Assembly: GCA_032718475.1 (NCBI GenBank)
Contig: JAUCBJ010002587.1
Span: 62,001 to 126,000, forward strand
Reading direction: 5' to 3'
Source of the DNA: Nemertoderma westbladi
Lineage: Eukaryota; Animalia; Xenacoelomorpha
Length of the DNA: 64,000 bases
In this document: positions 42,383 to 64,000 of the stretch, piece by piece
How positions within the stretch are numbered: the first letter of the stretch is position 1
How the letters are laid out: each line of letters begins with the position of its first letter
Made by a program: the position numbers and the translations under genes
Notes under the pieces: model-generated
What the model saw: only the letters and a program-made list of their open reading frames with translations
The model's database searches: none
What the model was told of the DNA's origin: nothing

Positions 42383-42476
42383 TATCTACATTTGTTTGTA
42401 CTAACATAACAAGCACGTTGTAGATATTCGGTTAGCTATAATAAGTCACTTAAATCCCGTTGTATTTTACTTTCAG

Positions 42477-42782
42477 TTGTTTGGAGCGCTGTTATCTGAA
42501 CGCCTAAAGATCTCTGATAGTTACTATGGGAACGGGCAATCCTTTCTGTTCCGCTACCGCCCCATGTTGGAGGTCTACAGATGGACCGGCCATAACAACT
42601 TCTTTATCAAAGGTGACAAGCAGTACTTGGTGATCGGAGGCGGACGGGGTACGTTCGGTTTGTGGTTCGATCGGGATCTGTTCCACGGACGGTGCCAGAT
42701 CTGTGATACATTCAATAACGAAATGTTATCTGATAGGGAAGACTTTAATATAGTTAGTCTAGAGGCTTGGTCGTTCGACTGA
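42477..42782 (+). CDS. OXR1: Terminal coding exon of a TLDc-domain protein (OXR1/NCOA7/mustard-like), C-terminal half of TLDc
   Basis: Splice acceptor TGTATTTTACTTTCAG ends at 42476 (phase 0). The translation shows TLDc hallmarks: FGA..SE.LK.SD.YYGNGQSFLF, WTG.N.FFIKG, IGGG.G.FGLWFD.DL.HGR...C.TFNN..LS..EDF....LEAW.F*. TGA stop at 42780-42782. The symbol is a family-level call. Confidence 0.9.
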   Translation: MFGALLSERLKISDSYYGNGQSFLFRYRPMLEVYRWTGHNNFFIKGDKQYLVIGGGRGTFGLWFDRDLFHGRCQICDTFNNEMLSDREDFNIVSLEAWSFD

Positions 42783-43617
42783 TACGTCTAGAGGCTTGGT
42801 CGTTCGACTGATACGTCTAGAGGCTTGGTCGTTCGACTGATACGTCTAGAGGCTTGGTCGTTTGACTGATACATCTAGAGGCTTGGTCGTTTGACTGATA
42901 CGTCTAGAGGTTTGGAGTGCGACTGAAACGTCTAGAGGCTTGGTCATTCGACTGATACGTCTAGAGGCTTGGACGTTCGACTGATACGTCTAGAGGCTTG
43001 GTCGTTCGACTGATACGTCTAGAGGCTTGGAGTTCGACTGATACGTCTAGAGGCTTGTTCGTTCGACTGATACGTCTAGAGGCTTGGTCGTTTGACTGAT
43101 ACTTCTAGAGGTTTGGAGTTCGACTGATACGTCTAGAGGCTTGGTCGTTCGACTGATACGTCTAGAGGCTTGGACGTTCGACTGATACGTCTAGAGGCTT
43201 GGTCGTTTGACTGATACGTCTAGAGGTTTGGAGTGCGACTGAAACGTCTAGAGGCTTGGTCGTTCGACTGAAACGTCTAGAGGCTTGGTCGTTTGACTGA
43301 TACGTCTAGAGGTTTGGAGTGCGACTGAAACGTCTAGGGGCTTGGTCGTTCGACTGAAACGTCTAGAGGCTTGGTCGTTCGACTGATACGTCTAGAGGCT
43401 TGGTCGTTCGACTGATACGTCTAGAGGTTTGGAGTGCGACTGAAACGTCTAGAGGCTTGGTCGTTCGACTGAAACGTCTAGAGGCTTGGTAGTTCGACTG
43501 ATACGTCTAGAGGCTTGGTCGTTCGACTGATACGTCTAGAGGCTTGGAGTTCGACTGATACGTCTAGAGGCTTGTTCGTTCGACTGATACGTCTAGAGGT
43601 TTGGTCGTTCGACTGAT
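42757..43617. repeat. 29-bp minisatellite (~30 copies) overlapping the TLDc stop codon and 3' UTR
   Basis: GTCTAGAGGCTTGGTCGTTCGACTGATAC repeated; the first copy encodes (S)LEAWSFD* of the exon. Confidence 0.95.
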
Positions 43618-44067: not shown

Positions 44068-45152
44068 GGTGTCCGGACACTCCCCCCCCCCCAGACACTT
44101 CCCCCCCGCGGACACTTCCCCCCCCAGACACTTCCCCCCCGGACACTTCCCCCCCGACTGTTCTTAACTTCGCACATTCGTATTTTTCATTTTGTAAGGT
44201 AAACGGACCGCTTGTATCCAGATAAGTTATATCCAATTTTCCTTTCGTATCTCAGAAAGTGATCTTTTGCAACCCGATTTTACATTTTATATCCAAGTTT
44301 TATTTATGGGTTTTATCAATGCAATTACATCGTATTGTTTGCTAATCTTTAAACAATTAATTAGATGACCTATAAATTCCATCCCCCGAATGATATACTG
44401 TTTTTATTAACTATAGAATTATAATATTTAATTGTTTTAATTATAGGTATTATTATGTAATAGTCTTCTTCAAATTGTAGCAGATGGGGATGAATATTAT
44501 TGTTGCAATCAAAATTATACCTCTCCAGGGTAAAATCGACATGCGTCGACCTGTATTCTGTGTTCAGCATTACATATTGATAAACTAATTAAATTTCCTG
44601 GTTACTTGCAATATTTTTAATATGATTTTGTTGAATTATATAATATTGTAGTAATTTATATATTAAATTGGTTAACATTCAATACAGCTCCTACTTTAGG
44701 CTTAGTCAATTTATTATCTGATGATACAAACATGAATTGATTTATTTCAAAATGGTTTCAAAGTTTTTCACCACGGGCACACAAGGAATGCCGGGGTTTG
44801 GGGACGGCAGCCCCCAACCAAAGAAGCGAGGGTTTGGAGGCGGCAGCCCCCAACAAAAGAAGCGGGGGTTTGGGGGCGGCAGCCCCCAATTAAAAGAAAA
44901 ACAAACAAAATTTGACTATAAAAATCTTGAATAATCTTGAAAAAACTTGTCTAGATACAACTTGTCCTGTAACCATCTTTAACTTTTGTTTATTGCTTTG
45001 GTGCACCCAGATTAATTTTAACACTTTAACTGGGGGGGAAGTGTCCGGGGGGGAAGTGTCCTACTTTGGCGGGGGGGAAGTGTCCGGGGGTGAAGTGTCC
45101 GGGGGGGAAGTGTCCGGGGGTGAAGTGTCCGGGGGGGAAGTGTCCTAGATCC
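44068..45152. mobile_element. Non-autonomous TIR DNA transposon (~1.09 kb) with tandem subterminal repeats and 8-bp TSD
   Basis: Left end GGTGTCCGGACAC plus (GGACACTTCCCCCCC)n; right end (GGGGGGGAAGTGTCC)n plus TAGATCC. ATTTGTAG is duplicated at 44060-44067 and 45153-45160. No transposase ORF. Confidence 0.85.
44792..44890. repeat. Three copies of a ~36-bp GC-rich unit inside the TIR element
   Basis: GGGTTTGGRGRCGGCAGCCCCCAA-containing unit, three copies. Confidence 0.8.
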
Positions 45153-46944: not shown

Positions 46945-49223
46945 TGTTAAACTAGCGCGACCCCTATACTAACAGCAGAACTGTTGAACAGACAAATACC
47001 CGTATACTTCTCTGCCAACCTAATGAGTTCCCGCCTAACCAATAAGACACAAAGACTGCTCTACTGTTAAGTAAAGGCGATCAGGAGCGTGCTATTACTA
47101 AATTGTAGGGCTGCTAAATACAAAACCGCTACTTACCGTTGGATGGCGCTAATCTGCCGTCCGCTAATATATTTTACTAAATTTACACGGCTCCCGCAAA
47201 ATCGCTTGTTCCTTTCTCTACCGATTGCTCGATAGAGAGCTAACTGTTCGAATCTATGAGCCACGCGGGAATAACCAAAACAATAAACCCGAGTCGGCTC
47301 CCTAAGCTTACTTAAGACGAGTGCGAGAGGCTTTGCACTCAGAGTATTCTTATGCCTAATTTTACTATTGAAATACGATAATGCCTACGTCTTTTCTAAT
47401 CGCGAATACTGGGGGTTCCCTAACGGAATGTATGAATGCGAGAATATTTAAAATAATCAAAATGGTACAGTATTTTGTCTCTACGTGGATAATACCGCTC
47501 TGGGTCTAAACTTGCCTGCAGCTGGCTTTAGGCCAGCAAATTACTAGTGTGTTGTGCGTACTGAATAATGCGATCTAGCTTATTGCCCGCTAATGCAAAT
47601 AACCGCTCAGCGTGAATAGTTTACAGTACCCTAATTATTACTTTAGCTATTCTCCGCTATGTTGCGTACTAATTCTTAATTTTACTAATCAATTACAGTC
47701 ACAAATATGTAACAGCGTACTAATTACTAAGAGTTCCAGAATGCGTAATTCTAATTTATTACACAACAGGTTTCGCTAGTAATAGCCTAAAATACCGTAT
47801 TACTTTGACCTAATCAGTAATTAATTGTTGTAAACTAAGAAATAGAAATCAATCTAAGGGAAAGGCGCCTACCTAAGCATTCGTAATCATAGGCACACTT
47901 CAGTAACACACCAATCAGCGTCAGCAATCACAGTTCGCAATTATGCAGTTCACTACCGTGTAGCCCACAGTTGTGCAATTCACTCTTCGTACTCCACACT
48001 TCACGCTGTAATACGTGCAGGCCTCTCCCGAGTACATCTAGGCTTCCTAACTAACCCGATTCCTGCCCCCCTAATACTAAATAGAGACGAAACCTGGATC
48101 ATAATAATTAATGTAATGTAATTAATGTAATCGTTAATCCCCCTAATTACTGTATCGGCGAATGGTCTGCATGCTACAGTGCGAAACGCCCGACCGCAAC
48201 GGTGACCCCCCGCCAGCGTTGCCCGCTTTTGAATCCTCCGCTCTCCCTTAGTCGCCCAACCCCCCGATGCGCCCACCGCCTACCGGCACCTTAGCCCTTC
48301 ATTTATTTGAATAGCTACCGTAGCGGCGCATGCAAATCACAAAGTCTGACAGTCTCAGAAAATCCCTTAGGATTATTGCGTAGAAATGAATCACATAGAA
48401 CCATTAACAAAAGGGGTAGAAATCATAGTTCCGATTGTAATTAGCAGTAATCGATAGGATTGATTGAGAAACGCAATTGAGAATAGTAGCACTAACAAAT
48501 CATTTCAAGAAATTAATCGAAAAATAGCAAATTGCAGAAATACGCAAAATTATACTTCTAACTTAATGGTACTAAATATGTCTGATGGCGTTGTTGTAAG
48601 AGGTAGCAAATGGATTGAGTTGATACAGCTCTACCGGCAAACCGCCAATTTATAGGTGATCCGAGAAGGGTGATGCAATCGCTCACTCATTGGCTCTTCA
48701 ATCCGCGCTTATCATTAGACCAACCTGGAAACAGTTAGTCCAATAAGAAAGCCGGATTGTAGCCCTATTGCTTCTCAAACCCTCAAAACGTCACCATATA
48801 AGGTAATTTTGCCGGTGCTTAATTTAGCGGTACTAATAACATGATGCACAAACATTAATTTAGCGCAATTATAGGAAATTACGACACGTGATAGCTAGCC
48901 CATCAAGACTAATAACAGCAAGCCCAAAATCCAGGGTCCAACTGAACTTGCTACCCTGGAACTATCTACTTATATCCTAATACAAAATTACGTAGGTAGG
49001 GCTACATACAGTACTATACAAAATGGATGAATTCAAATATATGGGCGTTTCAATTTCCTTATCTAAGTGTCACTGCGCTATTATACCTTATCTAAATAAT
49101 TATATTGCATAACAGACTAATATTGCGTACAGTATAACGGACTAATATATTATACTGCATAATGGACCAATATATTATACTGTATAATGGCTAATAATGT
49201 GTACAGCGCCATATACCGTAACA
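46945..49223 (-). repeat. Candidate 3' LTR of the BEL/Pao element (boundaries tentative)
   Basis: On the minus strand a short purine-rich GGAGCGG precedes TGTTA at 49223. A matching inverted TGTTA lies at 46945. TATAAA (minus, ~48650) and AATAAA (minus, ~48305) are inside. The partner LTR is outside the window, so this is unverified. Confidence 0.35.
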
Positions 49224-49335
49224 CCGCTCCAAGGGAAATCATACAATGTTTCCCTCCAACTGTAGAAGAGTATAAGGTGATGTATACAAACAAAATAAAT
49301 TTCTTTCAAATAATCTAAATAACACAATAATTCTA

Positions 49336-49505
49336 CTATTTACAAATATTGCCTGTCATAGATATTGCATAATGGAATTGCATACAAATTAAATTTACAA
49401 ATATTATCTCTCTCACTGTTTAACGATTATTACATACAAATTAAATTTACAAAATATTGTTTCTCGTTCGTACTACATAATGATTACTACATACAAGATC
49501 AAATA
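49336..49505. repeat. Degenerate ~55-bp AT-rich tandem repeat in the element's 3' UTR
   Basis: CATACAAATTAAATTTACAAA(A)TATT..TCTC recurs about three times. Confidence 0.6.
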
Positions 49506-49715
49506 TAAAAAATTTTGCTAGGGCAAGTGAAAGGAGTAAGCCAAACCCGCAGGTTTGTCTCCCCAATCACTTCCTTCGCCTCTCTCATAATATAAATTCA
49601 AAACAGCTCAACTAGTGTATATGAGTCTAGTCGGATATTTCTAAAATGCTACAATATACATCAGAGCGACGATGATGTATATATCTAGAGTCTGTCGCCC
49701 TGTGCTATAAATGCA

Positions 49716-52700
49716 TTATCGACCCGCTCCTGGGTTCTTTGGGCTCGCTACCCTCTTTCGCCCTCTTCCCAGATACACCAGTCTACCCCCTGTAGACTCT
49801 GTTGACGGCGTCCGTGAGGCGTCACTCCCCGGAACCGGCGACGATGTTCCCTGAGCCCCGACAGACTCCCGGCTGGTACTTCTACCTCGGCCTCGTCCCA
49901 ATTGTCGTGCTCCTGTGGTCGCTTCCGCCAACTCTTCCTTCTGCAATTGCACGCGCGCCTTCTCCGACGCACCCTGCGCCTTGCGCTGCAATCGCTGTGC
50001 CTCTATTATAGAGTGATAGTGGTCGTCCTTGACTTGACGCTTGTCTTGGACCTCTCCTCCTGGTTCTCTCCGCGAGCCTTGAGCTCCAGCGGTTGTCGCT
50101 GTGGTCGCTGCGATTCTCTGTTCCTGTATCCTCTCAGCGGTCAATGACCCCACTGGCACATGAGTCAACAAGAATTCGTTGCGGTATTGTATAGCCGCCA
50201 TCCTCCAATCACCTCGCGCGCGTACCACTTTTCTAGTTTCCGAAAACAGACCTTTTGTAATCCGGTCGCAAATGGCAACAAAGTTCCAAGTATACTTGTT
50301 ATCCATATTTAACTGTCTGAAGTATTCTCGGACTACGATAACTCCAGTGTTTTGTGGAAGGTCTTGAGCGGTTAGGATGAGCTCTTGATACTGTGGCAAA
50401 GACTGTAAATACGGCTCATATGCAACGTGAGATGGGTCTACTGCCCAGAATCCGTATCCCGCCTTAAATGGTAACCAACGCATCTGCGCTTGAATGTGGT
50501 AGTCGGCCACACTTTCCCACTTATCTAACATCTCCCGAAGTAGGTTAGCGCTATGGTTTTGGAAGGAATCATCTCGCAGCTGACATCTCGCGCTGCGATG
50601 TCCCTTTACCCCACAATATCCGCATTGAGAAATGAAGACGGTGCACGTGTGAAACGAATGGTCGGTCTCATTACACCAACGGCAGACCTTATGCGCCGCC
50701 TCTACTACCGCGTCGCACGACTTTTGATTGTGCCTTGTGCTGCCGCACAACTTACACCTCCGCGCTTGTGGAAACCAGGCCCTCTCGTATATGAGGTCTC
50801 CAATCGGTTTCGCACTTCCTTCTTTCCCAATGTCTAATACGATGTCGTCCTCTCCGGTCAGCGGTTGTCGATCCGGAACAAAGTAAACATCCTCGCCCTT
50901 GTCCTCTATCTCCAATATTTCCTCCCGCGTTCGTTTCGGATATGTCTTCTCCACCGGAAGATCTACTCCGAACACCTCTACTAACGTCTCCGGCCAACCC
51001 TCCTTAACGGGTCTATCAGCCTCCGAGTGGAAGGGAGTACCAAACCCGCGGGTTTGATTCCCGAACCACTTCTCCAAGGCTTCTGGCGTCGGATATTCCA
51101 TCGACGGTCGGTCTCCCAAATCTCCGATGTTCTGTCGATATACTCCTTCGAATATCGCTAATCCTCTCCTAACCATCGACGTATTCTCTAACGATTGGTT
51201 GAAGAACGGGGTTAAGAAACGCTTCATCACGTCGGATTGGATTCCCCCTTTCGAGCGAACGTATTGATCTCCTCCGAATACCAATGGATGACGCTTCAAA
51301 ACTCGCGCAACGATATCCGCTAATAAACAAGTCACCGTGTTCGACTCAAGCACCAAATAATATTGTAGCGACGCACGGGGTGGCGCGCAAATGTTCCAAT
51401 ACACTAACGCTTGCCGCTTGAAGTGGGATTTGAACTCCGCTCCCGGTGGCGTGTTGTATTCGCCATACGCCTCCTCGTATTTCTTCTGCGTCTTTAACTT
51501 AAAGTCCCAATTATACAATAAGTGTGCTATGAAGCCCATACCAGTCTTGGCAGAGTTGGGATACTCCCTATAAATTCCAATATCCTGTGCCCATAGCAAC
51601 AATAGCTTGGTGTCGACGAACGGTCTCGGCAATCTATCTTCCAGATCAGTCATGGCGTTGAAGTCACTCTCCAAATCGCTCTGGACTCCCGATCCCACCT
51701 TGACGTAATCTTGGTTGAGAATAGCCTCTCTAACCTTCTTGGGTAGCATCCTGGCGTCGATACGCTCCGCTCCGTGCATACCTCCTCGCCTGCATACCTC
51801 CAAAATCTGCTCCCTAGGATCCTTCCCCCTCCGATATTGTGTCGTTATGATGGGCTCCGGTCTCTCTCGATCCGCCCTCACGCGCATAAACACATGAGTC
51901 ACACCATCGGCCGCACGAATTTGAATGCACTTGCTAGTCAAACATTCCTGATGGGACCCTCCTTCATTGTCATAGAACATCACCCTCCAATCCTGCAGTG
52001 ATTCCTCCGTTTTCCTCCACTGACGCTGAATCTCGTCTGATGGGGTCCACATGCGCTCGATAGCCTTGTGGTCATCATATCGGGTGTAAGAACCCTTCCT
52101 CCTCAGCCACGTCTGGTCTACCTCCTCGTCGTCTGGGAATGTAGCCACCGCGACCCATACTTTGATGTACTTATCCAACCATCCAAACAGTTTGCTCTCC
52201 TTCCCCGGAGCTCCAATCTTGTCCAATGTGTCATAATCTGTGATCTGCATTGGGACATCACGCAAGAACTTCGCGCATAAAACTTCCCGTAGACAGTCAA
52301 CGTTCCAATGATCCGCCATTCTTACCATCGGCAAGAATCTTATCGCTTCTCGCGACTCCGGATGATCTACTAATATCGCAGGTTCGTTGCCGTCGGAATA
52401 ATACACCGGTCGGGGTTGAGATACGACCTGTGGAACAAATCCGGTCACTCTCCTCGTCTCCTCTTGATGTCTATCCGCGGTCTTATTATACTCCGCTATC
52501 CTATTCTCGAATAACTCTTTCGCCTTCGCCGCTCGCTCCTCCTGTCGCAACGCGTCTATGTCGTCCTGATGCTCAGGAGTGAGGGTTCTCGCTCGGTGAG
52601 GTGAAGTAAACGCAGTCCAGGGACTCGAGAGCTCCAAACCCGCGGGTTTGGTACCCGAGTCCCGTGCCGCTTCGCGCCGCGCCTCTAGATCCTTGTAGGC

Positions 52701-53423
52701 TCGGTACAGCGAAATGGCCGCTGCCGTCTCTATCAAACTGGGTGTCGAACAGGGTTTAATCTCCGTATACGGATCTAATGTCGTAACGGTCGGCGTAATG
52801 GGTCTCGGAGGTCGCTTTCCGCTGAAGTCGATACTGATCATCGGGTTGCTCATCGGGTAACCTCCCTCGTTATATCTAAGGAACTGGTGAGCTTGACATC
52901 GCGTTAATATCGGTTCTGGATGTTGCTCGTCTAGTCGGTCGGGAATCGCCACGTCTTGTTTATTCATGCATTCACCGCACTTGTAGAACAGCTTGTACAC
53001 GCTGAAGATTTTCGGCGTCTCCTGATCCTCGCCTCGAGTCCTCCGGTACAGATGCATTCCGTCGAACTGATCGCGGACTGCAGGTAGAGGTTCTTCGTGT
53101 CGTAAATACATATTCATATGGTACAGCCGTGCGATCTCCTCGTCCGGGTCTGCACTAATGTCACATACGTCTAAAGCGAAGTCGTAGGGATACCGAGTGC
53201 GATACTCTCTCCGCAAAACTTCCATACGGTCCCCCAACGCTCTCATTCTTTCCCTCCGTAATTCCTTATCATAAGTGGGTTTGTATTTCCCATTTAGCTC
53301 CATCACCGACCGCCCATGGTAGTAAACGTTCGAATCTTTACATCCCGGTCGCGCGAATGGTAGCTCCGCCTCCTCTCTGGCAGTAAATCCTCTGCGCGGT
53401 TGCGCTCTAATATCCTTCTCCAT
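49716..53423 (-). CDS. Accessory ORF (~1235 aa from the first in-frame ATG): DnaQ/DEDDy 3'-5' exonuclease-like domain (WRN/Mut-7/EXD/RNase D type), three CCHC zinc knuckles and an RG-rich tail
   Basis: Open for 3.7 kb. ExoI-like MFYDNEG (~51961-51980), ExoII-like LPKKVREAILNQDYVKVGSGVQSDL (~51672-51750), FVDTK, GMGFIAHLL, ExoIII-like W....P...LQYYLVLES (~51341-51400). Knuckles CKLCGSTRHNQKSC, CRWCNETDHSFHTC and CGYCGVKGHRSARC (~50583-50756). C-terminal GRGRGR. Confidence 0.8.
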   Translation of the reverse strand: MEKDIRAQPRRGFTAREEAELPFARPGCKDSNVYYHGRSVMELNGKYKPTYDKELRRERMRALGDRMEVLRREYRTRYPYDFALDVCDISADPDEEIARLYHMNMYLRHEEPLPAVRDQFDGMHLYRRTRGEDQETPKIFSVYKLFYKCGECMNKQDVAIPDRLDEQHPEPILTRCQAHQFLRYNEGGYPMSNPMISIDFSGKRPPRPITPTVTTLDPYTEIKPCSTPSLIETAAAISLYRAYKDLEARREAARDSGTKPAGLELSSPWTAFTSPHRARTLTPEHQDDIDALRQEERAAKAKELFENRIAEYNKTADRHQEETRRVTGFVPQVVSQPRPVYYSDGNEPAILVDHPESREAIRFLPMVRMADHWNVDCLREVLCAKFLRDVPMQITDYDTLDKIGAPGKESKLFGWLDKYIKVWVAVATFPDDEEVDQTWLRRKGSYTRYDDHKAIERMWTPSDEIQRQWRKTEESLQDWRVMFYDNEGGSHQECLTSKCIQIRAADGVTHVFMRVRADRERPEPIITTQYRRGKDPREQILEVCRRGGMHGAERIDARMLPKKVREAILNQDYVKVGSGVQSDLESDFNAMTDLEDRLPRPFVDTKLLLLWAQDIGIYREYPNSAKTGMGFIAHLLYNWDFKLKTQKKYEEAYGEYNTPPGAEFKSHFKRQALVYWNICAPPRASLQYYLVLESNTVTCLLADIVARVLKRHPLVFGGDQYVRSKGGIQSDVMKRFLTPFFNQSLENTSMVRRGLAIFEGVYRQNIGDLGDRPSMEYPTPEALEKWFGNQTRGFGTPFHSEADRPVKEGWPETLVEVFGVDLPVEKTYPKRTREEILEIEDKGEDVYFVPDRQPLTGEDDIVLDIGKEGSAKPIGDLIYERAWFPQARRCKLCGSTRHNQKSCDAVVEAAHKVCRWCNETDHSFHTCTVFISQCGYCGVKGHRSARCQLRDDSFQNHSANLLREMLDKWESVADYHIQAQMRWLPFKAGYGFWAVDPSHVAYEPYLQSLPQYQELILTAQDLPQNTGVIVVREYFRQLNMDNKYTWNFVAICDRITKGLFSETRKVVRARGDWRMAAIQYRNEFLLTHVPVGSLTAERIQEQRIAATTATTAGAQGSRREPGGEVQDKRQVKDDHYHSIIEAQRLQRKAQGASEKARVQLQKEELAEATTGARQLGRGRGRSTSRESVGAQGTSSPVPGSDASRTPSTESTGGRLVYLGRGRKRVASPKNPGAGR

Positions 53424-53732
53424 TATACCCCGCGTATATACATATATATATCCCAATAAGTGCCGTTACGTAACCAATTACACTGTGGGTAAATCAGTTA
53501 GATGTCGCCGAAGGACAGACCTCCCGAACCCCCCCCCCCCCCCCCCCCCGCTGCCTTCCAGCAGTTCAGGTTCGACTCTCTAGATCCCGTCTCTTCCTAA
53601 CTAACTATCCTCTAACCTATTCCCATGCATAGCGCAAAAACTTTGGAGATAAACTGGCCGTGACCAACTCACTTTTTGATGCCCAAACTACTCCCATTAC
53701 TCGTACTAAACTACAGTAGTTAGAAGGACTAT

Positions 53733-54863
53733 CTGGCTGTTATCTTTGTTGACTTCTTCAAGGCCTTTGATTCAGTCTCTCGCTCACGTATGTTCAGCAT
53801 ACTTTCATTATATGGGATTCCTGATGAAATTATTGCAGCAATCAGATCAGTATACGATGGTTCGACAACATTTGTGTCTACTGTTGACGGTGACACAGAA
53901 CCATTTGAAGTGTTATGGGGCGTCCTCCAAGGAGACACACTTGCACCATTCTTGTTCATTATTGTGGTTGACTATGTTCTACGCATGTCCTTAGATCATC
54001 ATAATGATGATGGGGTGATGATAACTCCACCTACTGGCTCCAGAAGTCGAGGAAATCCTGCCAAGTACCTAACTGATCTAGACTTTGCTGATGACTTAGG
54101 AGTACTCTCAGAATCATTAGAGGGAGCCCAACGGCTCCTCAGCTCATTAGAACATGCTGCTTCTAGTGTTGGTCTTTTTATTAACTCCAGAAAGACCAAA
54201 ATTCTGACAGTTAACTTTGAAAGTCCTCAGCAAGTCTCTGATCGGATGAGCATAAGCTCAAAGGATGGTATGCTTGAGCATGTGGACGACTTCTGTTACC
54301 TGGGATCATGGATCCGGAAGTCAGGTGAGGACCTTCGAATACGTAAGGGAAAGGCATGGGCAGCCTTGAATAGGCTTTCCAGGATTTGGAAGTCACCGAG
54401 AATTAATCGGAAACTTAAGGTCCGATTATTTAGAGCAGCAGTAGTTCCAGTACTCCTCTATGGGAGTCCATGCTGGGCTCTAACTGCTGAGGACACCAAA
54501 TCTCTGGATGGCACATTCACAAGAATGCTACGCCGGGTTCATTGTGTCAAGTACAATGCACACATCTCCAACCAGACACTATATAACATTGGAGGTGTCT
54601 CATTGGTTCCCCCAAGCTTGACACTAGAACAAAATCGCCTCCGCTTTGCAGGACATTGCTTTCGCCGTGAGGACCAGCCAGTGCATAATCTTGTACTTTG
54701 GCAGCCTCATGGAGTGAATAAGCATGGTGGACAGCCCATGACTTTCTTGAGACGCATCTTAAAGGACACTGGCCTTAAAGATGCGGATGATCTAGCAAAT
54801 GTCATGGGTGATAGGGAGTTGTGGCGGTGCAATTTTGTTGACAAGCCGGCACAGCATTCTTAA
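53733..54863 (+). pseudogene. Non-LTR reverse transcriptase, C-terminal part (no endonuclease, 5' truncated)
   Basis: Motifs VDFFKAFDSV, GVLQGDTLAPFLF, FADD, GLFINSRKTK, FCYLGS, LLYGSPCW and RLRFAGHCFR; no C-terminal CCHC, as in RTE-type elements. Confidence 0.9.
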
Positions 54864-54897
54864 AAATGCAGCTGCAATGCAGCATGCCGATCCTAGT
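53733..54897 (+). mobile_element. 5'-truncated non-LTR retrotransposon (RTE-like LINE) nested antisense in the BEL/Pao element
   Basis: RT fragment starts abruptly at the VIFVDFFKAFDS motif. Short 3' UTR with TGCA-type repeats. AGGACTAT at 53725-53732 and 54898-54905 is a candidate TSD. Confidence 0.8.
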
Positions 54898-55370
54898 AGG
54901 ACTATAGCCACAATACTCGACTATACCAAACCCACAGGTTTGATAATCGAACATCACACTTCACTGCAAACTACTGAGTGGGGTCCATGTACGCCTCTGG
55001 TGCTACTAACCTTTAGCACCTTAGTTGCACTGTTGGCACCAATCTGTGGAAGTTGCTAAACTCAATTTACACTCCTACGTAATATAGCCGTCACCATGGT
55101 TTCTAAATGCTATTTTCCAGGCTTCACGACTTTTCAAATTACTGTATATCTATAGACGAATTCTAAAACGCGTCTATACACAGCGTCTGGAATTGTCTTG
55201 GGTTCACTTCTAATTTTTTAAATTTTTAAATTTTCCAAAAATTTTGAAAATAAAATTTTGTTTTTGATACCCACCAGACAAAACTCAACGCAAATCACTG
55301 CAAACCCGCTCCTATGCATTTCCTTGTATTTGCATACGAGGAATGCATACGAAGTGAGTTGCATCCAACG

Positions 55371-58300
55371 CTAATTCTGTTTAGAGGCAGGAGACAAATT
55401 ATAATCTCCTGTCTCGATACGTGTCTCCTCTAATAACACGATATCTTGGACCGGTCGGTCCAAGGTGTGTAAACCATTAGTTTTACACTTCTTTGGGTGC
55501 GGACACTTGCACCTAATTTTCACAGTGACTGTGCGCACTATGTTTTGCACGTCTGGGTGTGTGTGCAAGATGACACCTGTCTCCCAGTATTTTCTCTTGA
55601 CAATTGGTTCGGTTATCAATACGTAATCTCCCCTTTGGAGACTCCGAACCGTTTTGTACCACTTTGTTCTGGTAGATATGGTGGGAAGATAGTATTCCCG
55701 CCAATATTCCCAGATTGTGTACGCCACTAATTGTGTCACCTTCCAGCTTTTACGACTATATAGGTCGGCACTAACGGGTTCTGATGCCGGCACAAGAAAT
55801 GCTGGACTCTGCATTAACAAATGATTCGGCGTTAATGCAACACCATCTGGCAACATAGCTATCGGCCTCGAGTTTAATGTATGCTCGATTTCGATGAAAG
55901 CTGTGACCAGTTCGTCGTCGGTAAGTTGTTTGTTTACAGGCAATGTTTTGGCAATGGCCTGTTTTACAGAGCGAACTAAACGCTCCCAACTTCCTCCTCT
56001 CCAAGGACTTTCTGGAGTATTAAATCTCCACTCTACTCCTAGCGGCAAAAGTGCTGCAGAAATTTCCTTATTCCGTGCCGCTTTATGAGCCGCGTTCAAC
56101 TCGCTATTCCCTCCGACAAAGTTTGTACCCTTATCAGAGTAGAACGCCTTTACTAGTCCTCTCCTGGCCATAAATCTCTTTAAGGCCAGGAGCAGAGATT
56201 TGGTCGACATGTCTGCCACACGCTCAATGTGTATGGCTCTACTAGCCATACATGTCAGTAGCAGACCCCATCGCTTGTGGGTCAGCCATCCACTCTTTGC
56301 TTCAATCGGACCAAAACAGTCCACCCCTGTGTTCGTAAAGGGTGGGTCATTTGCCTGCACTCTCGCTTCCGGGAGTTCAGCCATCTCCTGTTCCAATACT
56401 CTGGCGTTCACTCTCTTGCAAACCAGACAGGCGTCGTACATGGTGCCGACTGCCCTGCTTGGCTGCAATAGAATGAATCGCTGTCTCGCTGCCGACAGAC
56501 AGTGTAACTTTCCCGCGTGATGCAACCTCTTGTGTATATCCCATAGAATCGCTCTTTGCAATTCTATTGGGTGACTAGGGATTATCACTGGGAACCGAAA
56601 CTGTGAGTTTATGTCGACAGTCTGGATTCTCGATCTATGACAAATTAAACCCTTATGGATTAATGGACTCCATTTTCTAAGGGGTTTATAGAGAACTGGT
56701 CGTTGAGCCGATAATAGATAGAATTCTTTTGGGAAGGCACACATTTGATAATGTTTCAAATGCTTTAATTCCGCTTGATCAATCTCATCCTCTGTCAGAG
56801 GTTGTTTCAATTTCCGAATTCGCTCACTATTGGCGCTCGATGGTTCTCTCAAATGTTCCGAATGTTTTATACAAAGGTACGAAATGTATCGGCTTAACCA
56901 CGCAGTTCTTTTACAAATTGTCAGCCAAGAGGCAGACGAATTTAGTAATTTGTCATAAATACTGCATGACTCTAATGCCAGCGACGGTTGTCCGCTAACT
57001 AATGGAAGTTTCGAATCCAAACCCGCAGGTTTGGAAACCAAAGGCTCCATTTTGTCGGTCATTTTCTGTCCGTCACTTACCAACTGTGACTCTGGTTTAG
57101 TCTGTAAGGGTGGTTTTATGTCATAACTTACCCTTCCGGACCTAGTAGTCACGTAAGTCTGTTGGTCTGACAGGTCTCCGGGACGCTCCAATAACTCTTC
57201 AGGCCGCTCCAATGACTCTTCAGGCCGCTCCAATGACTTAAGTTTGGCTTTAGACTTCGACTTAGAGACTTTCTCCACCTTGACTTCTGCATCTTCAGGC
57301 ATCGGATTGGTCACTATCTTTAGTCGCTCTGGCCAATGTTCCTGTGTCCTCGTTAGAAAATCAGGTCCATGCAACCAAAACTCCTGCGACTCCTCCTGAC
57401 AGAATTCCGCCGGCATTGCACCTCTCGAAGTTATGTCGGCCGGGTTTAACACTCCCGGACAATGTCTCCATTGTTCCTTCGTCGAAAAGTCGACTATCTG
57501 AGCGCGTCTATTGGCCACAAATGTCTTTAGTGCAATATTGTCGGCCGCAATGTACACTAACACCAAGGATGCGTCCGTCCAATAAAATAAGGTCAATGTC
57601 GTATCTAACTCCTCAGTTATCTGCTTACTTACCTCGACTGAAACTACAGCCGCCTGTAACTCTGCACGAGGGACAGTCATGTATTTGACCGGCATTGTCT
57701 TTGATCTAGAAGTCACAAAGGCCGTCTCAAATTTATCCTGACTCACCTCTCGGCGAAGGTAGGCTACCATACCAAAGCCGGTGTCACTTGCGTCACTAAA
57801 CAGATGCAGTTCGAGATCAGCTGGAAATACCAGCTGATTCGGAAAGTAGGAACGGGGTACATCTATATTTTTCAATAGATGCAACTCGGCTTCCCACTCC
57901 CTCCACTGCTTTGCATGTATAGGAGATATTGGTTCGTCCCACTCTAGGTCGGACAACCAAATTTTCCTCATGCACGCTCGTGCCTGTAATATAACCGGAC
58001 TGATATAGTTCATCGGGTCAAATAGTCTACTCAAAGTCGATAAGCAAATTCTCTTTGTCAAAACTTTGTCTGGGCTACTGGGCTCAAATCTAACTCTTAC
58101 CTGGAATTTATCCGTATTCGGATTCCAAGCGAGTCCCAGTACTCGCGCCATGGGAATTGGTTCTACCCCCAATTCTATGTCTCCGCTCCCGCGATCTTTC
58201 ACCGGGAATGACTCTAATAGGGCCTCCGAGTTCGTAGTGAACTTGGTGAGAGGAAATCCCCCTGTAGCCAAGCACTCTTGCAGGCCGTGAGCCACTTCTA

Positions 58301-61300
58301 TGGCTTGTTCCGCCGTGTCCTTGGACACCAATCCGTCGTCCATGTAGAAGTTTCTCAAGATGGACTCGATAACCTCTACTGGATACTTACCAATCTGGGC
58401 TGTTGCCGTTTTCTTTAAAACAAACAGCGTGCCATTTGGACTATCGCGGGCACCAAATATCCTTACGTACATCTGGTATGTAACCACTGGGCCGGATAAG
58501 TCTTCATTCTCATACCAGAGAAAGCGAAGGCTATCCTGGTCTGCCTTACAGGCTCTTACCTGGTGGAACATCGCCTCGATGTCACAAGTAAATGCGAATC
58601 GCCGCTGTCTAAAACGTAACAGTATTCCAATCAAATAATTATTCAGGTTGGGACCATCCATCAACTCTGAATTCAGGGACATACCTCTATAGACTGCTGC
58701 GCAGTCGTTGACTACTCGGACTTTGTCAGGTTTGTCAGGGTGAGTCACATAGTGGTGTGGGAGGTAATAAGTCTGGTCTGTCACTAAGTCAGGGTCCTCT
58801 ACCTTCCCAGCAAATCCCTTGGCGAAATAGTTGTTGATCTGGGCGCAATACTTCTCCCTAATGTCTGGATTCTTCAACAACCGAGCCCTTACTCCGTTTA
58901 ATCTTTTCAAGGCTAAGTTGTAGTTGTTCTCCAACTTAGGTGGTTGTCGACGCCACAACATTCCAACTTCAAAATGTCCAGTCGGTAGTAGACGTATGGT
59001 ATCTTCCATCATCTCCAGCGACCGTTTCTCATCAGTAGACATGGCTAGGTCATATCCACCGGGTTCCATTGCGTCCCTATCCAGCCATTCGACGGTTCTG
59101 GCTCCTGTCTCAAGGTCCTGGCGTATCAATTCCTTCTGCAATTCCTCCTCACTGTACTGGAAAATGTCTAGGTCTCGATATTTAGCCACCTGACCCTCCA
59201 CTATGTCAGTATAAGTCAAAACGTTACTCAGATAGGTAGCGTGGGCCGCTGAACCAGACCCACGGGTCTGATAACAGTAGTCCTCGGGTTCACTATCTGT
59301 CCGGTCATTATGAAGTGGTTCCGACAACCTAACATTATCGGGAATCAACTCCTCGTCCGACTCGCTAAAGTCACTATAGTGGTCAATACAGGTTCTCCTA
59401 AACTCGTCTATGTCTGGTGGTTCTACTAACGGTGGTTGAGTTATAGGCTGTAATTCGTCATATCTGTCTATTGGCTTGCCGCCACCTGTAAACTCATAAG
59501 ACATGGGTACTCTTGTATACCAACCTAATATGGTCCTATGGGCATGTGGTCCATTGACATGCGGCTCAGCTGGTCTCGTTTCCCATATCTGGTGTGCGAT
59601 CAGCTGTTCTGCACCAATCAACATAGAAACATTCCTATAACCTACCTGGTGTCTGGGTATCCTGAGCTTGTCAAAATACTCCTGTGCTATGGGACTCATC
59701 GGTGGCACCTTACCTAACTGCCTGCCGAATCCCTTCATAGCTAGACACTTAAATCCGTCCAATGGCAAAGCTTTCCATTCTTGTCGAGTATGTTGGTCTC
59801 TCGGAAGTAGGGAATCTAGTTCTACAGATATCCTGTGTCCCTTGAGGTCACCTACCCCATGCATAGACTTCAACTCTATTTGGATCTCCTCAGCGTCCTG
59901 GAAGCTAGAAACAGCTCTCGCCACTTCCTCGTCGATATAAGATAATGTGGACGCAGTGTCCAACATGACATATATTCGCTTCGATCCCTTATCGCCAGTA
60001 ACTTTCACCGGATTCACGCTAAATATTTCCGACGTGGCCGATGATAGATACGTCCGCGCGCTGGTCGATGAACTATCCGCAGTGAAACCTTGGCAGGTCA
60101 CTTCTCTCGCGCTCGACTCGCCATCTTCGTCCGACGAACCTGGTTGATAACCATCGTCCTGGATGCCGGTGTACGTATTCCTTCTTATCGATACGGGTTC
60201 TTTGCTCCCCTTCCTGTGAGGATTTCGCTGTAAGTAACGGTCCGTTGGGGTATGGAAATCCGCATGTAGCAACTTGTGATGTAGTCTGCCGCATTCCATG
60301 CATCCGTCCTTGCTGTTCGGGCACTGCCGCCGTACATGACCTGGCGCAAGACATGCCCAACAGGTGTCCAACGTCCGCACTTGAACTCTTCTCTGTTCCG
60401 AAATTAATTCTTTGAACCGTCTGCAACTATCTAACTTATGGTCGTCAGATCTTACCTCCTTTAGTAAGCAGTATTGGCAACCTACAAATCCATCCGGCAA
60501 CTCCTGTTGCTTTAACCTAGGTCTATCTAACCGCTCACCTGACCATACTCGCGAGTCTGATCTAAAGGCTGGGGTACTCGAATTATATCTGTCTACTGAG
60601 TTAAATGTCACAGTGGTCCTGTCATCGTCAAAACTTACCATAGACTTACCGGTAACAGGTTTAGACTCTCTCATATTCTCCTCTGAGAAGTTTGATTTCA
60701 TCTCTGCTACTGCGTCTGTGGCTATCATGTCATGAATATGCTGAAGTGTCAACACTTTACCTTGACCCTCCAACTTATTCTCTAATTTGCGCCATTTCTG
60801 TCGGTAACGCATGTTTAAACGTCTTATTACGCTTTTTAAAACTTCGGCGTGATCACCATGATGAGGTAGATTCACCGTCCTCAAGATGTCCAATGCGTTC
60901 GAAATGGCGTTCGCTAAGTTCAACAGCTCTAACGGAGTTGTAATCCTTCCGCCCTTACCCAAGTCTTCTACTATCGACTGCGCCATCTTGGTTTTATTCC
61001 CGTAGATGTCGCTAAGCGTCTTCATCGCTAACTCGAATGCCCTTTCATTGCCGACGAAGTTGTCAGCAATGGCTCTAGGTTCTCGATGGAGCATCTGAAG
61101 CAAATAGTTGAACTTCTCGTTGGGAGTAAAGGTGCTGTTGGTTAGCTGCTCGTCGACATAGGTTTTGAAGGTCCTCCAATGCTTATGGTTGCCCATAAAC
61201 TTCTGGGGTTGTTGCGTCGGCAGTCCTTGCCTAGCAGCAAACTTACCTATGTCCCTAAGGGTTGCGTCGTTCCGGGTTAACAAATGGTTTAGTTCCGCAG

Positions 61301-62906: not shown

Positions 62907-63665
62907 CTATGTGTCACTCACCTGAGTCGCCTGCGCTTGTGATGCCCATAGCAGCCAGTTCTCCGTCCTAACTCGTCGGAATCGCTCCGATAACTCGCGG
63001 TGCTCCAACAAAGCTGCTAAAACCCTGTTGTAAATCCTCGTCGCCACGTCGCTCGACTGAGACTCTACTGCCTTCTTCGCTAGGACTGCAAGCTCCTCCG
63101 TCTGTTTGAATAACGCTGAGTTGTATCCTCTTCTAATCTCTACTAACTCCACCCTCCCGATGTTGGCTGAGTCAGCTAACATCTTCCTTACCTTGTCCGT
63201 CGTCCGGGTTTTATGTCCGGCATGCGCGCGAAGTTTCTTCTTTATCGCGATATCAAGTTCTCTCTCGCTTACCTGACTCACACTCGGTGGACTTGAAGGA
63301 TTATTTCGGGAACTACGGGTACTCCTTACAGCCGTCGGGACCATGGCACTTACCATACCCACAGGTCTGGAAACCGGGCTCCGGGCTCTCGCTTCTGCTA
63401 CACTACCCTCCCTATCACTCACCTCTGTCCGGGCTGCTGTGCGGTCCTTCCTTTCAGTAGTGGTAGGGGATCCTAATACTATTACCTCACCTTGTTCTTC
63501 CTCACTGGTTACTGTCTCGTCCTCCTGTTCACTTACGTCAGCGTCGCTCGCTGCGTCGTCATAGTCGGCATTGTCGTCAACAGTAATATTGACACTATCG
63601 TCAGTCGGCGGTCCTGCCGCCGTCTCATAGCTGTCCTCCAGTGCCTCCTTGTCTGAGACACTCAT
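62907..63665 (-). CDS. N-terminal Gag segment (252 aa), in frame with gag-pol and separated from it by a single TAG
   Basis: ATG at 63665 after an AT-rich leader; acidic low-complexity N-terminus followed by a helical region. The junction reads ACA TAG TTG AGA in one frame. Confidence 0.8.
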   Translation of the reverse strand: MSVSDKEALEDSYETAAGPPTDDSVNITVDDNADYDDAASDADVSEQEDETVTSEEEQGEVIVLGSPTTTERKDRTAARTEVSDREGSVAEARARSPVSRPVGMVSAMVPTAVRSTRSSRNNPSSPPSVSQVSERELDIAIKKKLRAHAGHKTRTTDKVRKMLADSANIGRVELVEIRRGYNSALFKQTEELAVLAKKAVESQSSDVATRIYNRVLAALLEHRELSERFRRVRTENWLLWASQAQATQVSDT

Positions 63666-64000
63666 AGTCTAAATAATGTTTTGCCTTCCGGCAAAAATAT
63701 CTCGCAAAAGTTCGAGATATAATTATAATTTAACCGAAATACGGTCAAATTATTTGTCAAATAATCAGTTGGTCCAAATGTCAAATAAATTCGCAATGCA
63801 ATATTGTGAATTTAATAGGGTATAGTTATAGCAAATACTAGCACAATATTTAAACAAAATATTATTATATAGCTACTATAGCAATTAAATACCGGTATGA
63901 CACAAAATAATTTCTGAATCTAATACAAAATATTCAGAATAAATTTGCCACCCAAATAATTCCAATTTTGCATATATAGCTCTAATCAACGTAATTTTAA

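Follow-up and report, generated by a model that had tools for sequence, protein, structure and literature searches.

Retroelement genes for stand-alone exonucleases have been described in bdelloid rotifers, in which a DEDDy exonuclease ORF3 lies downstream of pol in Juno, Vesta and the Terminons (Rodriguez, Kenefick and Arkhipova 2017, PMC5408684). According to that study, ssDNA is a possible substrate of DEDDy enzymes and the element's RNA might be processed at its 3' end; variation within the genome was neutral in the env-like and GDSL ORF3s that were sequenced (PMC5408684). A second comparable system is cellular: Trypanosoma brucei RNase D (TbRND; PDB 7C42, 7C45) is a DEDD exonuclease with C-terminal CCHC fingers, which bind the RNA substrate of the DEDD site (PMC7797062). 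Given these two precedents, the original prediction for the locus analysed here overstated the novelty of its exonuclease plus CCHC architecture; it also mentioned RNase D-like domains in some nematode BEL-type elements, for which our literature searches found no report. The new features are a BEL/Pao element as host, the fusion to knuckles and the protein family itself.

The BEL/Pao element and ORF3

The window, 64,000 nucleotides of Nemertoderma westbladi DNA, contains the following features.

55371–63664, minus strand: BEL/Pao gag-pol (knuckles, protease, RT, RNase H, integrase)
53725–54905, plus strand: nested 5'-truncated LINE (RT and DUF6451) in the pol-ORF3 spacer, from Pfam and read-contig joints
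53483–53501, minus strand: predicted branch point, pyrimidine tract and CAG splice acceptor, about 60 nt upstream of the ORF3 ATG, read from the sequence
49716–53423, minus strand: ORF3, 1235 aa from the first ATG (53423), with an exonuclease-like domain, three CCHC knuckles and a conserved C-terminal domain
49224–49230, minus strand: short purine tract, likely PPT, directly before the LTR start
46945–49223, minus strand: likely 3' LTR, 2279 bp, with TGTTA...TAACA ends, from terminal repeats and a depth edge

The gag-pol gene is of BEL/Pao type, matching the Pfam models for Pao RNase H (PF05380, E 7.1e-39), DUF1759 (3.8e-9) and DUF5641 (5.5e-15). Its domains follow in a single frame as knuckles (810, 849 and 869), protease (981), YMDD (1521), RNase H (1703) and integrase (2125–2307), with catalytic motifs present; one in-frame stop (62907–62909) interrupts the gene in this copy. 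The termini of the likely 3' LTR are exact inverted repeats, which place its start at 49223 rather than at about 49245; ORF3 lies upstream of the likely PPT and LTR, as anticipated. The LTR contains a TATA box (48654) and two AATAAA signals (48307 and 47760), and repeat-level depth drops between 46903 and 47004, matching its edge; the call rests on the one LTR within the window, the 5' end of the element being beyond base 64000. Depth is at repeat level from 47004 to 64000, compared with 15–40 on unique flank contigs. The data support a multi-copy BEL/Pao retrotransposon. The nested LINE is an insertion of 1173 bp with an 8-bp target duplication (53725–53732 and 54898–54905); read contigs in three of four runs join 53725 to 54898, skipping it, and the insertion is private to some copies, with others lacking it.

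The minus strand is open over 49716–53465 (1249 codons stop to stop), and ORF3 residue numbers start from 53456. As predicted, ORF3 is intact, without introns, on the same strand as gag-pol, and located between gag-pol and the likely 3' LTR, its ATG 1948 bp from the pol stop, or about 775 bp without the LINE. With a predicted splice acceptor upstream, ORF3 is likely made from spliced RNA. No transmembrane stretch is present in ORF3: the highest 19-residue Kyte-Doolittle mean is 1.34, within the nuclease domain. The N-terminus is charged, and the signal peptide plus TM anchor that characterize env are not seen, supporting the earlier view that ORF3 is not env.

ORF3 is also not a single-copy sequence. 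One exact 174-bp ORF3 contig has a depth of 7733; flank contigs from that run are at about 20. Summed ORF3 depth is about a third to half that of pol, depth here not being equal to copy number; many copies may thus lack ORF3 or carry a diverged ORF3. In the run guessed to be RNA, ORF3 and pol depths are alike, a comparison that is not informative on expression. Among 25 listed ORF3 variants, a best-supported, non-random subset of several hundred, 21 are synonymous against 30% expected (p 2.7e-8, rough omega 0.08), and the variants showing this excess include exonuclease-domain and knuckle sites. This dN/dS-type analysis, proposed with the original prediction, supports purifying selection on ORF3. 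It also largely refutes the idea that ORF3 is a host gene or a recently acquired passenger, useless to the element. Such a passenger would fit the summed depth below pol, the deletion of parts of ORF3 in some copies and a 5' LTR beyond the window; against it stand, besides the synonymous excess, the lack of introns, the failure of our searches to find a close host-type homologue, and two element-wide hairpins written into ORF3 codons in different frames (below). We regard it as very improbable.

The exonuclease-like domain and zinc knuckles

ORF3 contains the following regions and motifs.

52062–53423, minus strand: N-terminal region, aa 12–465, with CxxC...CxxH at aa 160–190
51276–52061, minus strand: DEDDy-type (WRN/EXD2/Nibbler-like) exonuclease domain, aa about 466–727, from profile, atlas and model
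51963–51974, minus strand: candidate ExoI, D496/E498 (YDNE 495–498)
51675–51701, minus strand: ExoII, D594 (KVGSGVQSD 586–594)
51345–51359, minus strand: ExoIII, Y700-x3-E704 (YLVLE 700–704)
50583–50756, minus strand: three CCHC zinc knuckles, aa 901–958, from motif reading and profile
50367–50579, minus strand: conserved domain after the knuckles, aa about 960–1030, without a family name (motif in 8/8 relatives)

Eight distant relatives, none of them named, have a common layout of exonuclease-like domain, three CCHC knuckles and conserved domain, and exonuclease and knuckles co-occur in all eight. They are known as proteins alone; metagenome and viral scans for their loci gave no confirmed locus. 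Word-index homologue searches returned 0/6415, 0/7992 and 0/3886 candidates and are weak, the 7992 search having missed its own query relatives. Literature searches, with Repbase, subscription journals and supplements outside their scope, found no prior report of a BEL/Pao exonuclease or of the palindrome discussed below. The predicted N-terminal CxxC...CxxH is present, but the region that holds it (aa 12–465) is missing from all eight relatives, and an in-frame 327-bp deletion (aa about 61–170) removes half of the motif in some copies. An HMM from the relatives' N-terminal block alone did not match the ORF3 protein.

Several lines of evidence, each modest, agree on the fold. First, the family profile matches EXD2 (E 4.6e-5), followed by Egalitarian (0.019) and WRN (0.29). 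Second, the atlas places the domain with a PF01612 cluster (0.91; 154 shared features, family on 50% of members). Third, a structure search with a low-confidence model (mean pLDDT 45, first 103 residues <50; a single-sequence fold reached only 31) has the Nibbler EXO domain as its best match (Z 6.1, rmsd 4.6, 172 aligned). DEDD nucleases fill its top rows, and polymerase proofreading domains and Egalitarian-BicD with K10 TLS RNA are also among the matches. The structural check was otherwise negative, with no Foldseek match to the model at E<=0.001, and Pfam matched no family at all, the expected DNA_pol_A_exo1 included (whole ORF3 protein, E<=1; exonuclease part, E<=10). No direct PDB sequence match was found for the exonuclease domain, and PF01612 matched 0/8 relatives at E<=0.1. 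Rotavirus VP4 matches (E 0.06 and 0.008) over 59 residues inside the nuclease domain were judged to be chance. Overall, sequence profiles and modelling support the predicted DnaQ-like fold of the WRN/EXD2/Nibbler-type DEDDy group.

YDNE, KVGSGVQSD, YLVLE and the three knuckles all lie where they had been predicted. The ExoII D594 is invariant in the family alignment, with the VGS...D motif in 7/8 relatives. ExoIII departs from Y-x3-D: Y700 is kept and E704 replaces Asp, giving a D-E-D-E set; among the relatives the fourth carboxylate is Glu in 2/8 and Asp in 5/8, the segment being missing in one. The register of ExoI is less clear. YDNE ranks 2 of 1235 windows against the relatives' ExoI block, the hairpin after it ranks 7 of 1229 with a spacing of 22 (20–27 in the relatives), and both hhalign runs place D496/E498 on ExoI. 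However, MAFFT and blastp against P0009 place ExoI at aa 519–527, which has no acidic residues, ordinary gap penalties prefer this register in 4/6 and 5/6 relatives, and the D496/E498 register requires an insertion of about 30 aa. The structure model was built on an alignment in the rival register and does not decide the question. D496/E498 are favoured as ExoI but not settled; in the rival alignment the site would be dead.

The knuckles, at 901, 925 and 945, all have the exact form C-x2-C-x4-H-x4-C, following the nuclease domain after a linker of about 170 aa. The family profile matches Lin28 knuckles (E 2.3e-6) and, through the knuckles, TbRND (E 7.5e-5), which is also in the fold list (Z 4.3); an atlas search with the knuckle region returned generic knuckle clusters only, below 0.9. 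Of the tail, which had been called RG-rich, the last 60 residues contain just three RG pairs.

Our leading explanation, offered tentatively and at somewhat less than even confidence, is that ORF3 is a spliced accessory 3'-to-5' exoribonuclease that benefits the element by trimming small RNAs of the host or RNA tails. The three knuckles would grip single-stranded RNA and feed it to the active site, by analogy with trypanosome RNase D, and D496/E498/D594/E704 would carry out two-metal catalysis, as in homologues. Left untrimmed, the small RNAs or tails would silence the element. The substrate, the least-supported part of this scheme, might be piRNA or siRNA precursors, tRNA fragments or oligo-U tails. 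We know of no animal LTR retrotransposon for which suppression of small-RNA silencing by an encoded protein has been proven.

Domains of the EXD2 and WRN type take both DNA and RNA as substrates, and an alternative is that ORF3 works in the particle on replication intermediates, through tRNA primer trimming, cDNA 3'-end proofreading or trimming, or genomic RNA tail removal. The proofreading domains among the fold matches are consistent with such a role, as are the ssDNA activity and 3'-end processing considered for the rotifer enzymes (PMC5408684). Against this, ORF3 is encoded apart from Pol, in a gene of its own that has a predicted splice acceptor. To our knowledge, moreover, most BEL/Pao elements replicate without such a nuclease gene, and we consider a role in the particle unlikely.

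A putative hairpin array in the element RNA

Nine palindromes of 16–20 nt, 1.1–2.2 kb apart, which the original prediction had overlooked, are distributed over gag-pol, ORF3 and both spacers.

49542–49557, minus strand: palindrome 1, 3' spacer
51041–51056, minus strand: palindrome 2, inside ORF3
52635–52650, minus strand: palindrome 3, inside ORF3, other reading frame
54927–54942, minus strand: palindrome 4, pol-ORF3 spacer
57018–57033, minus strand: palindrome 5, pol
59255–59270, minus strand: palindrome 6, pol, with compensatory pair
60544–60559, minus strand: palindrome 7, gag, weakest match, with compensatory pair
61876–61891, minus strand: palindrome 8, gag
63354–63369, minus strand: palindrome 9, 5' gag

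The palindromes fall in different reading frames, including the two inside ORF3 codons. Their 18 non-Watson-Crick positions include 12 G-U pairs when read on the RNA strand and none when read on the other, which points to action as RNA hairpins, and the loops are G-rich. An origin of the hairpin variants by CpG decay was rejected (CpG observed/expected 1.06 in the element, changes one-sided). Rfam had no match. It is likely that all nine fold as hairpins in the full-length element RNA, and their occurrence at the same spacing within ORF3 indicates a long history of ORF3 as part of this RNA. Most simply, the hairpins would be packaging or dimerisation marks for Gag to read. Retroviral dimerisation palindromes and the dispersed packaging signals of ssRNA viruses are known RNA marks of this kind, and share with these hairpins the form of short palindromic stem-loops that could pair two RNA molecules. 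However, the signals of retroviruses and Ty elements are concentrated towards the 5' end, whereas the nine hairpins spread evenly over 14 kb, within coding sequence. If the array is functional, the element would mark its RNA in a manner unusual among retroelements.

The hairpins bear on a further reading, in which ORF3 serves as an adaptor, perhaps without catalytic activity in this lineage, that binds the hairpins of the element and helps to package, pair or transport its genomic RNA in the manner of Egalitarian. Lin28- and nucleocapsid-type CCHC knuckles bind G-rich hairpin loops, and the element carries nine such evenly spaced sense-strand hairpins. Egalitarian, whose exonuclease-like domain has been solved with localisation-signal RNA, is second in the family profile and appears in the fold list with BicD and K10 TLS RNA; in addition, the rival alignment register removes ExoI. 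Retention of catalytic acids in most relatives (ExoI DxE in 6/8, ExoII Asp in 7/8) argues for an active enzyme, and Gag, with three knuckles of its own, is a simpler reader of packaging marks. An adaptor is possible, though on the unlikely side. The exoribonuclease reading could also be joined to the hairpins in a two-part RNA system: the array would mark, pair or compact the element's own RNA, in the way of packaging signals scattered through RNA-virus genomes, and the knuckle-guided exonuclease, from a family not described before, would read these marks, spare or escort self RNA and trim host small RNAs. We think this combination improbable.

Comparison with known systems

The WRN-exo/EXD2/Nibbler (Mut-7)/Egalitarian group (PF01612, DNA_pol_A_exo1) provides the best profile and fold matches, and its ExoII and ExoIII regions align with ORF3. 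Unlike this group, ORF3 has no direct Pfam match, Glu as the fourth carboxylate and an uncertain ExoI register, and we know of no host protein of these types with such a knuckle module. The ORF3 family is a protein family that Pfam misses. The element itself resembles other BEL/Pao elements (Belpaoviridae) in its single gag-pol, PR-RT-RH-IN order, Pao RNase H model, DUF1759, DUF5641 and three Gag knuckles; it differs in its long LTR of 2.3 kb, its element-wide hairpins and the extra 1.2-kaa nuclease-like ORF where other elements have env or no gene.

ORF3 and TbRND share a DEDD exonuclease followed by C-terminal CCHC fingers (PMC7797062). TbRND is a mitochondrial enzyme of the cell, its four fingers set on a linker of 28 aa (PMC7797062), whereas ORF3 has three knuckles about 170 aa on, a long N-terminus and an extra conserved C-terminal domain. 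The two layouts are probably convergent, with no evidence of orthology.

The rotifer ORF3 is likewise a stand-alone DEDDy ORF after pol, in the env position and without a TM domain, with functions predicted alone and the same candidate roles listed, 3'-end processing and silencing (PMC5408684). It differs in having a DEED rather than a DEDE set, in having no reported CCHC knuckles compared with three here, and in its hosts, since the elements treated in that study are Juno, Vesta, TelKA and Mag, with no mention of BEL/Pao (PMC5408684). The present locus adds a third retroelement group to those that have presumably captured a DEDDy ORF3. The functions of the rotifer DEDDy ORF3s have been only predicted since 2017, and ORF3 offers an intact, selected, multi-copy case with an RNA-binding module and named candidate catalytic residues, which opens a simple enzyme assay. 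In contrast to the neutral variation of the rotifer env-like and GDSL ORF3s (PMC5408684), ORF3 here is under purifying selection.

ORF3 within the BEL/Pao element

A single LTR retrotransposon runs on the minus strand from ~46.9 kb to the window end and is a BEL/Pao element by domain and domain-order tests (PF05380 is the BEL/Pao RNase H; PMC3985635). Its parts are as follows:

55371–63664, minus strand: gag-pol gene
53725–54905, pol-ORF3 spacer: nested LINE, 5'-truncated, with RT and DUF6451 and an 8-bp target duplication
53423–49716, minus strand: ORF3, 1,235 codons, in the env position
directly before TGTTA at 49223, minus strand: short purine tract
49223–46945, minus strand: candidate 3' LTR, 2279 bp, starting TGTTA and ending TAACA

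The predicted placement of ORF3 between pol and the 3' LTR is supported by three observations. Contigs from other copies join 53725 directly to 54898, skipping the LINE, in three of four runs, which connects the ORF3 flank with the pol flank in those copies; repeat-level read depth ends between 46903 and 47004; and 49223–46945 has LTR-like ends. We read this segment as the 3' LTR of an inferred pair whose 5' member lies beyond the window. The window's copy has a single in-frame gag-pol stop at 62907–62909, 253 codons into gag; in each of the four runs, contigs from other copies carry something else at this position, so the stop looks private. The nested LINE belongs to a very high-copy family (summed depth >1 million) and inserted 22 bp from hairpin 4 (54927–54942, pol-ORF3 spacer), one of the palindromes described below. 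Elsewhere, satellite DNA of 45-bp period fills positions 1–42305 (~the first 42.3 kb), with stop-free frames of up to 5364 codons; adjoining it is a fragment resembling the last exon of a host gene with a TLDc domain (42405–42782, plus strand; PF07534, E 8.4e-27), a 29-bp tandem array follows at 42757–43617, and a ~1.07-kb MITE-like unit at 44075–45147 bears inverted arrays of a 15–16-bp G/C-rich repeat at both ends.

ORF3 is a real and well-supported gene: selected, element-borne and of DEDDy fold. First, it is not single-copy; in two DNA runs its summed depth is 15,000–54,000 against 15–40 for unique flank contigs, and one ORF3 contig, exact over its 174 bp, reaches depth 7733 in a run whose flank contigs lie at ~20, which suggests hundreds of copies, summed depth not being a copy number. 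Second, a rough form of the proposed dN/dS check, made on the 25 best-supported ORF3 variants (849 and 267 further rows fall in the compared stretches), points to purifying selection: 21 are synonymous where 30% would be expected (p 2.7e-8; omega roughly 0.08). Counting against a selected multi-copy gene, ORF3 is covered one third to one half as deeply as pol, and deletions occur in some copies; one of these, found in three of four runs, removes 327 bp in frame from the N-terminal part. A passenger gene, which such losses would suit and the synonymous excess opposes, is very improbable.

The ORF3 frame is open over 53465–49716, with its first ATG at 53423. Upstream of the ATG, a branch-point-like motif, a pyrimidine tract and a CAG ending at 53483 form a predicted splice acceptor, a feature that an env-position gene made from spliced RNA should have. 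A six-codon upstream ORF (53423–53443, minus strand) has a stop that overlaps the ORF3 ATG (TAATG), and a run of ~20 G lies at 53524–53545, before the predicted acceptor. The splice-donor consensus GGTAAGT occurs nine times on the gag-pol sense strand (57081–63354, minus strand), once on the antisense strand and nowhere in ORF3; synonymous-codon shuffles of gag-pol give 2.7 on average and reached nine in 0 of 300, and a looser pattern is more weakly enriched (7 of 300 shuffles). Possibly these sites, a pattern picked after the fact, bind U1 or act as donors in splicing of the ORF3 message.

Protein family and catalytic residues

Pfam and PDB sequence searches with ORF3 returned nothing convincing. 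Exhaustive HMMER searching found eight relatives at E<=0.001 (25–32% identity, 514–727 aa), none informatively named, and in all eight a nuclease-like region precedes CCHC knuckles, after which comes a conserved helical motif; the N-terminal 460 aa of ORF3 are absent from them. The DnaQ-type fold of the original prediction is supported by profile matches of the nuclease region to EXD2 (E 4.6e-5), Egalitarian (0.019) and WRN (0.29). Modelling from the nine aligned sequences gave a weak structure (mean pLDDT 45), whose top structural matches are DEDD nucleases, the best being Nibbler EXO (Z 6.1, rmsd 4.6, 172 aligned); Foldseek gave no match at E<=0.001 but ranked EXD2 and polymerase exonuclease domains first. 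The ESM atlas offers a modest lead, a PF01612 cluster at 0.91 sharing 154 features with ORF3. The knuckles match Lin28 and nucleocapsid fingers, and no transmembrane stretch was found in the protein, in agreement with its not being env. One relative, P0002, carries two copies of the three-knuckle and C-terminal module, and its nuclease region has decayed, which suggests that the module may be able to act alone.

Residue numbers for the exonuclease motifs count from 53456. ExoII is firmly D594, and ExoIII is present as Y700 and E704, with Glu in two of the eight relatives and Asp in five. ExoI has two possible registers. The first, on D496/E498, comes second among 1235 windows scored against the ExoI block of the relatives, its next hairpin ranks 7 of 1229, and its spacing fits the relatives; mafft-linsi, mafft-einsi and hhalign choose it, at the cost of a ~30-aa insertion where one relative's insertion is larger. 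The second, on aa 519–527 with the acids lost, is chosen by the alignment tool, by blastp against another relative (P0009) and by standard gap penalties, and the predicted model follows it because its input alignment did. The active register is moderately favoured over the acid-less one.

We tentatively prefer to see ORF3 as an accessory exoribonuclease acting on host small RNA or RNA tails, targets suggested by analogy with Nibbler/Mut-7. Its knuckles would grip a single-stranded 3' end and pass it to the DEDD-type site, as the knuckles of trypanosome RNase D hold RNA and feed such a site (PMC7797062). The same site could instead process primer, cDNA or genomic RNA ends, a role that we consider quite unlikely.

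A palindrome array along the element

A 16-nt palindrome occurs seven times at <=3 mismatches (0.14 expected; 0 of 100 shuffles), and a matrix scan adds two before scores drop sharply. All nine (49542–63369) fall in the stretch from the gag start to the LTR: gag-pol has five, ORF3 two and the spacers two. The LTR, the LINE and the remainder of the window have none. Once the LINE is excluded, the gaps span 1120–2237 bp (CV 0.23, P ~2e-4 under random placement). Reading frames differ among sites, and synonymous-codon shuffles seldom yield such sites (gag-pol, four against 0.26, 0 of 100; ORF3, two against 0.15, 2 of 100). The motif definition is post hoc and comes from one element copy, and an Rfam search gave no match.

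The 8-bp stem pairs in 66 of 72 cells, and four cells have both partners altered (3 of 500 shuffles). With the central four bases, 18 of 90 positions are non-Watson-Crick, of which 12 are G-U in the sense orientation and 0 in the antisense, and CpG depletion is not seen in the element. This one-sidedness and the absent depletion favour pairing in RNA (or plus-strand ssDNA) rather than a double-stranded DNA site. The palindromes are thus likely RNA hairpins, and for seven of the nine 40-nt windows folded the hairpin is the minimum-energy structure; two molecules could pair through the central Y-G-Y-G. An Egalitarian-like adaptor for these hairpins, possibly non-catalytic, would suit the array, the Egalitarian match and the acid-less register; we regard it as somewhat unlikely.

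Comparison with known systems

Our literature search, with Repbase, subscription journals and supplements outside its scope, found no earlier report of a BEL/Pao exonuclease and no published account of the palindrome. Capture of an active RNA demethylase is shown for an orchid Gypsy element (PMC9289625). The exonuclease-plus-knuckle architecture had been put forward as possibly new; an element-borne DEDDy ORF3 as such has precedents: Rodriguez et al. (2017) described DEDDy ORF3 genes (motif DEED), untested, in rotifer Juno/Vesta LTR elements and Terminons (PMC5408684), an account repeated in PMC5718144 and PMC6431247. Unlike those genes, the N. westbladi ORF3 resides in a BEL/Pao element, none of which is named among the carriers in the main text or legends of PMC5408684. 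What this locus adds to the rotifer case is a BEL/Pao host, an undescribed exonuclease-knuckle family, the selection evident among copies, and the array of hairpins.
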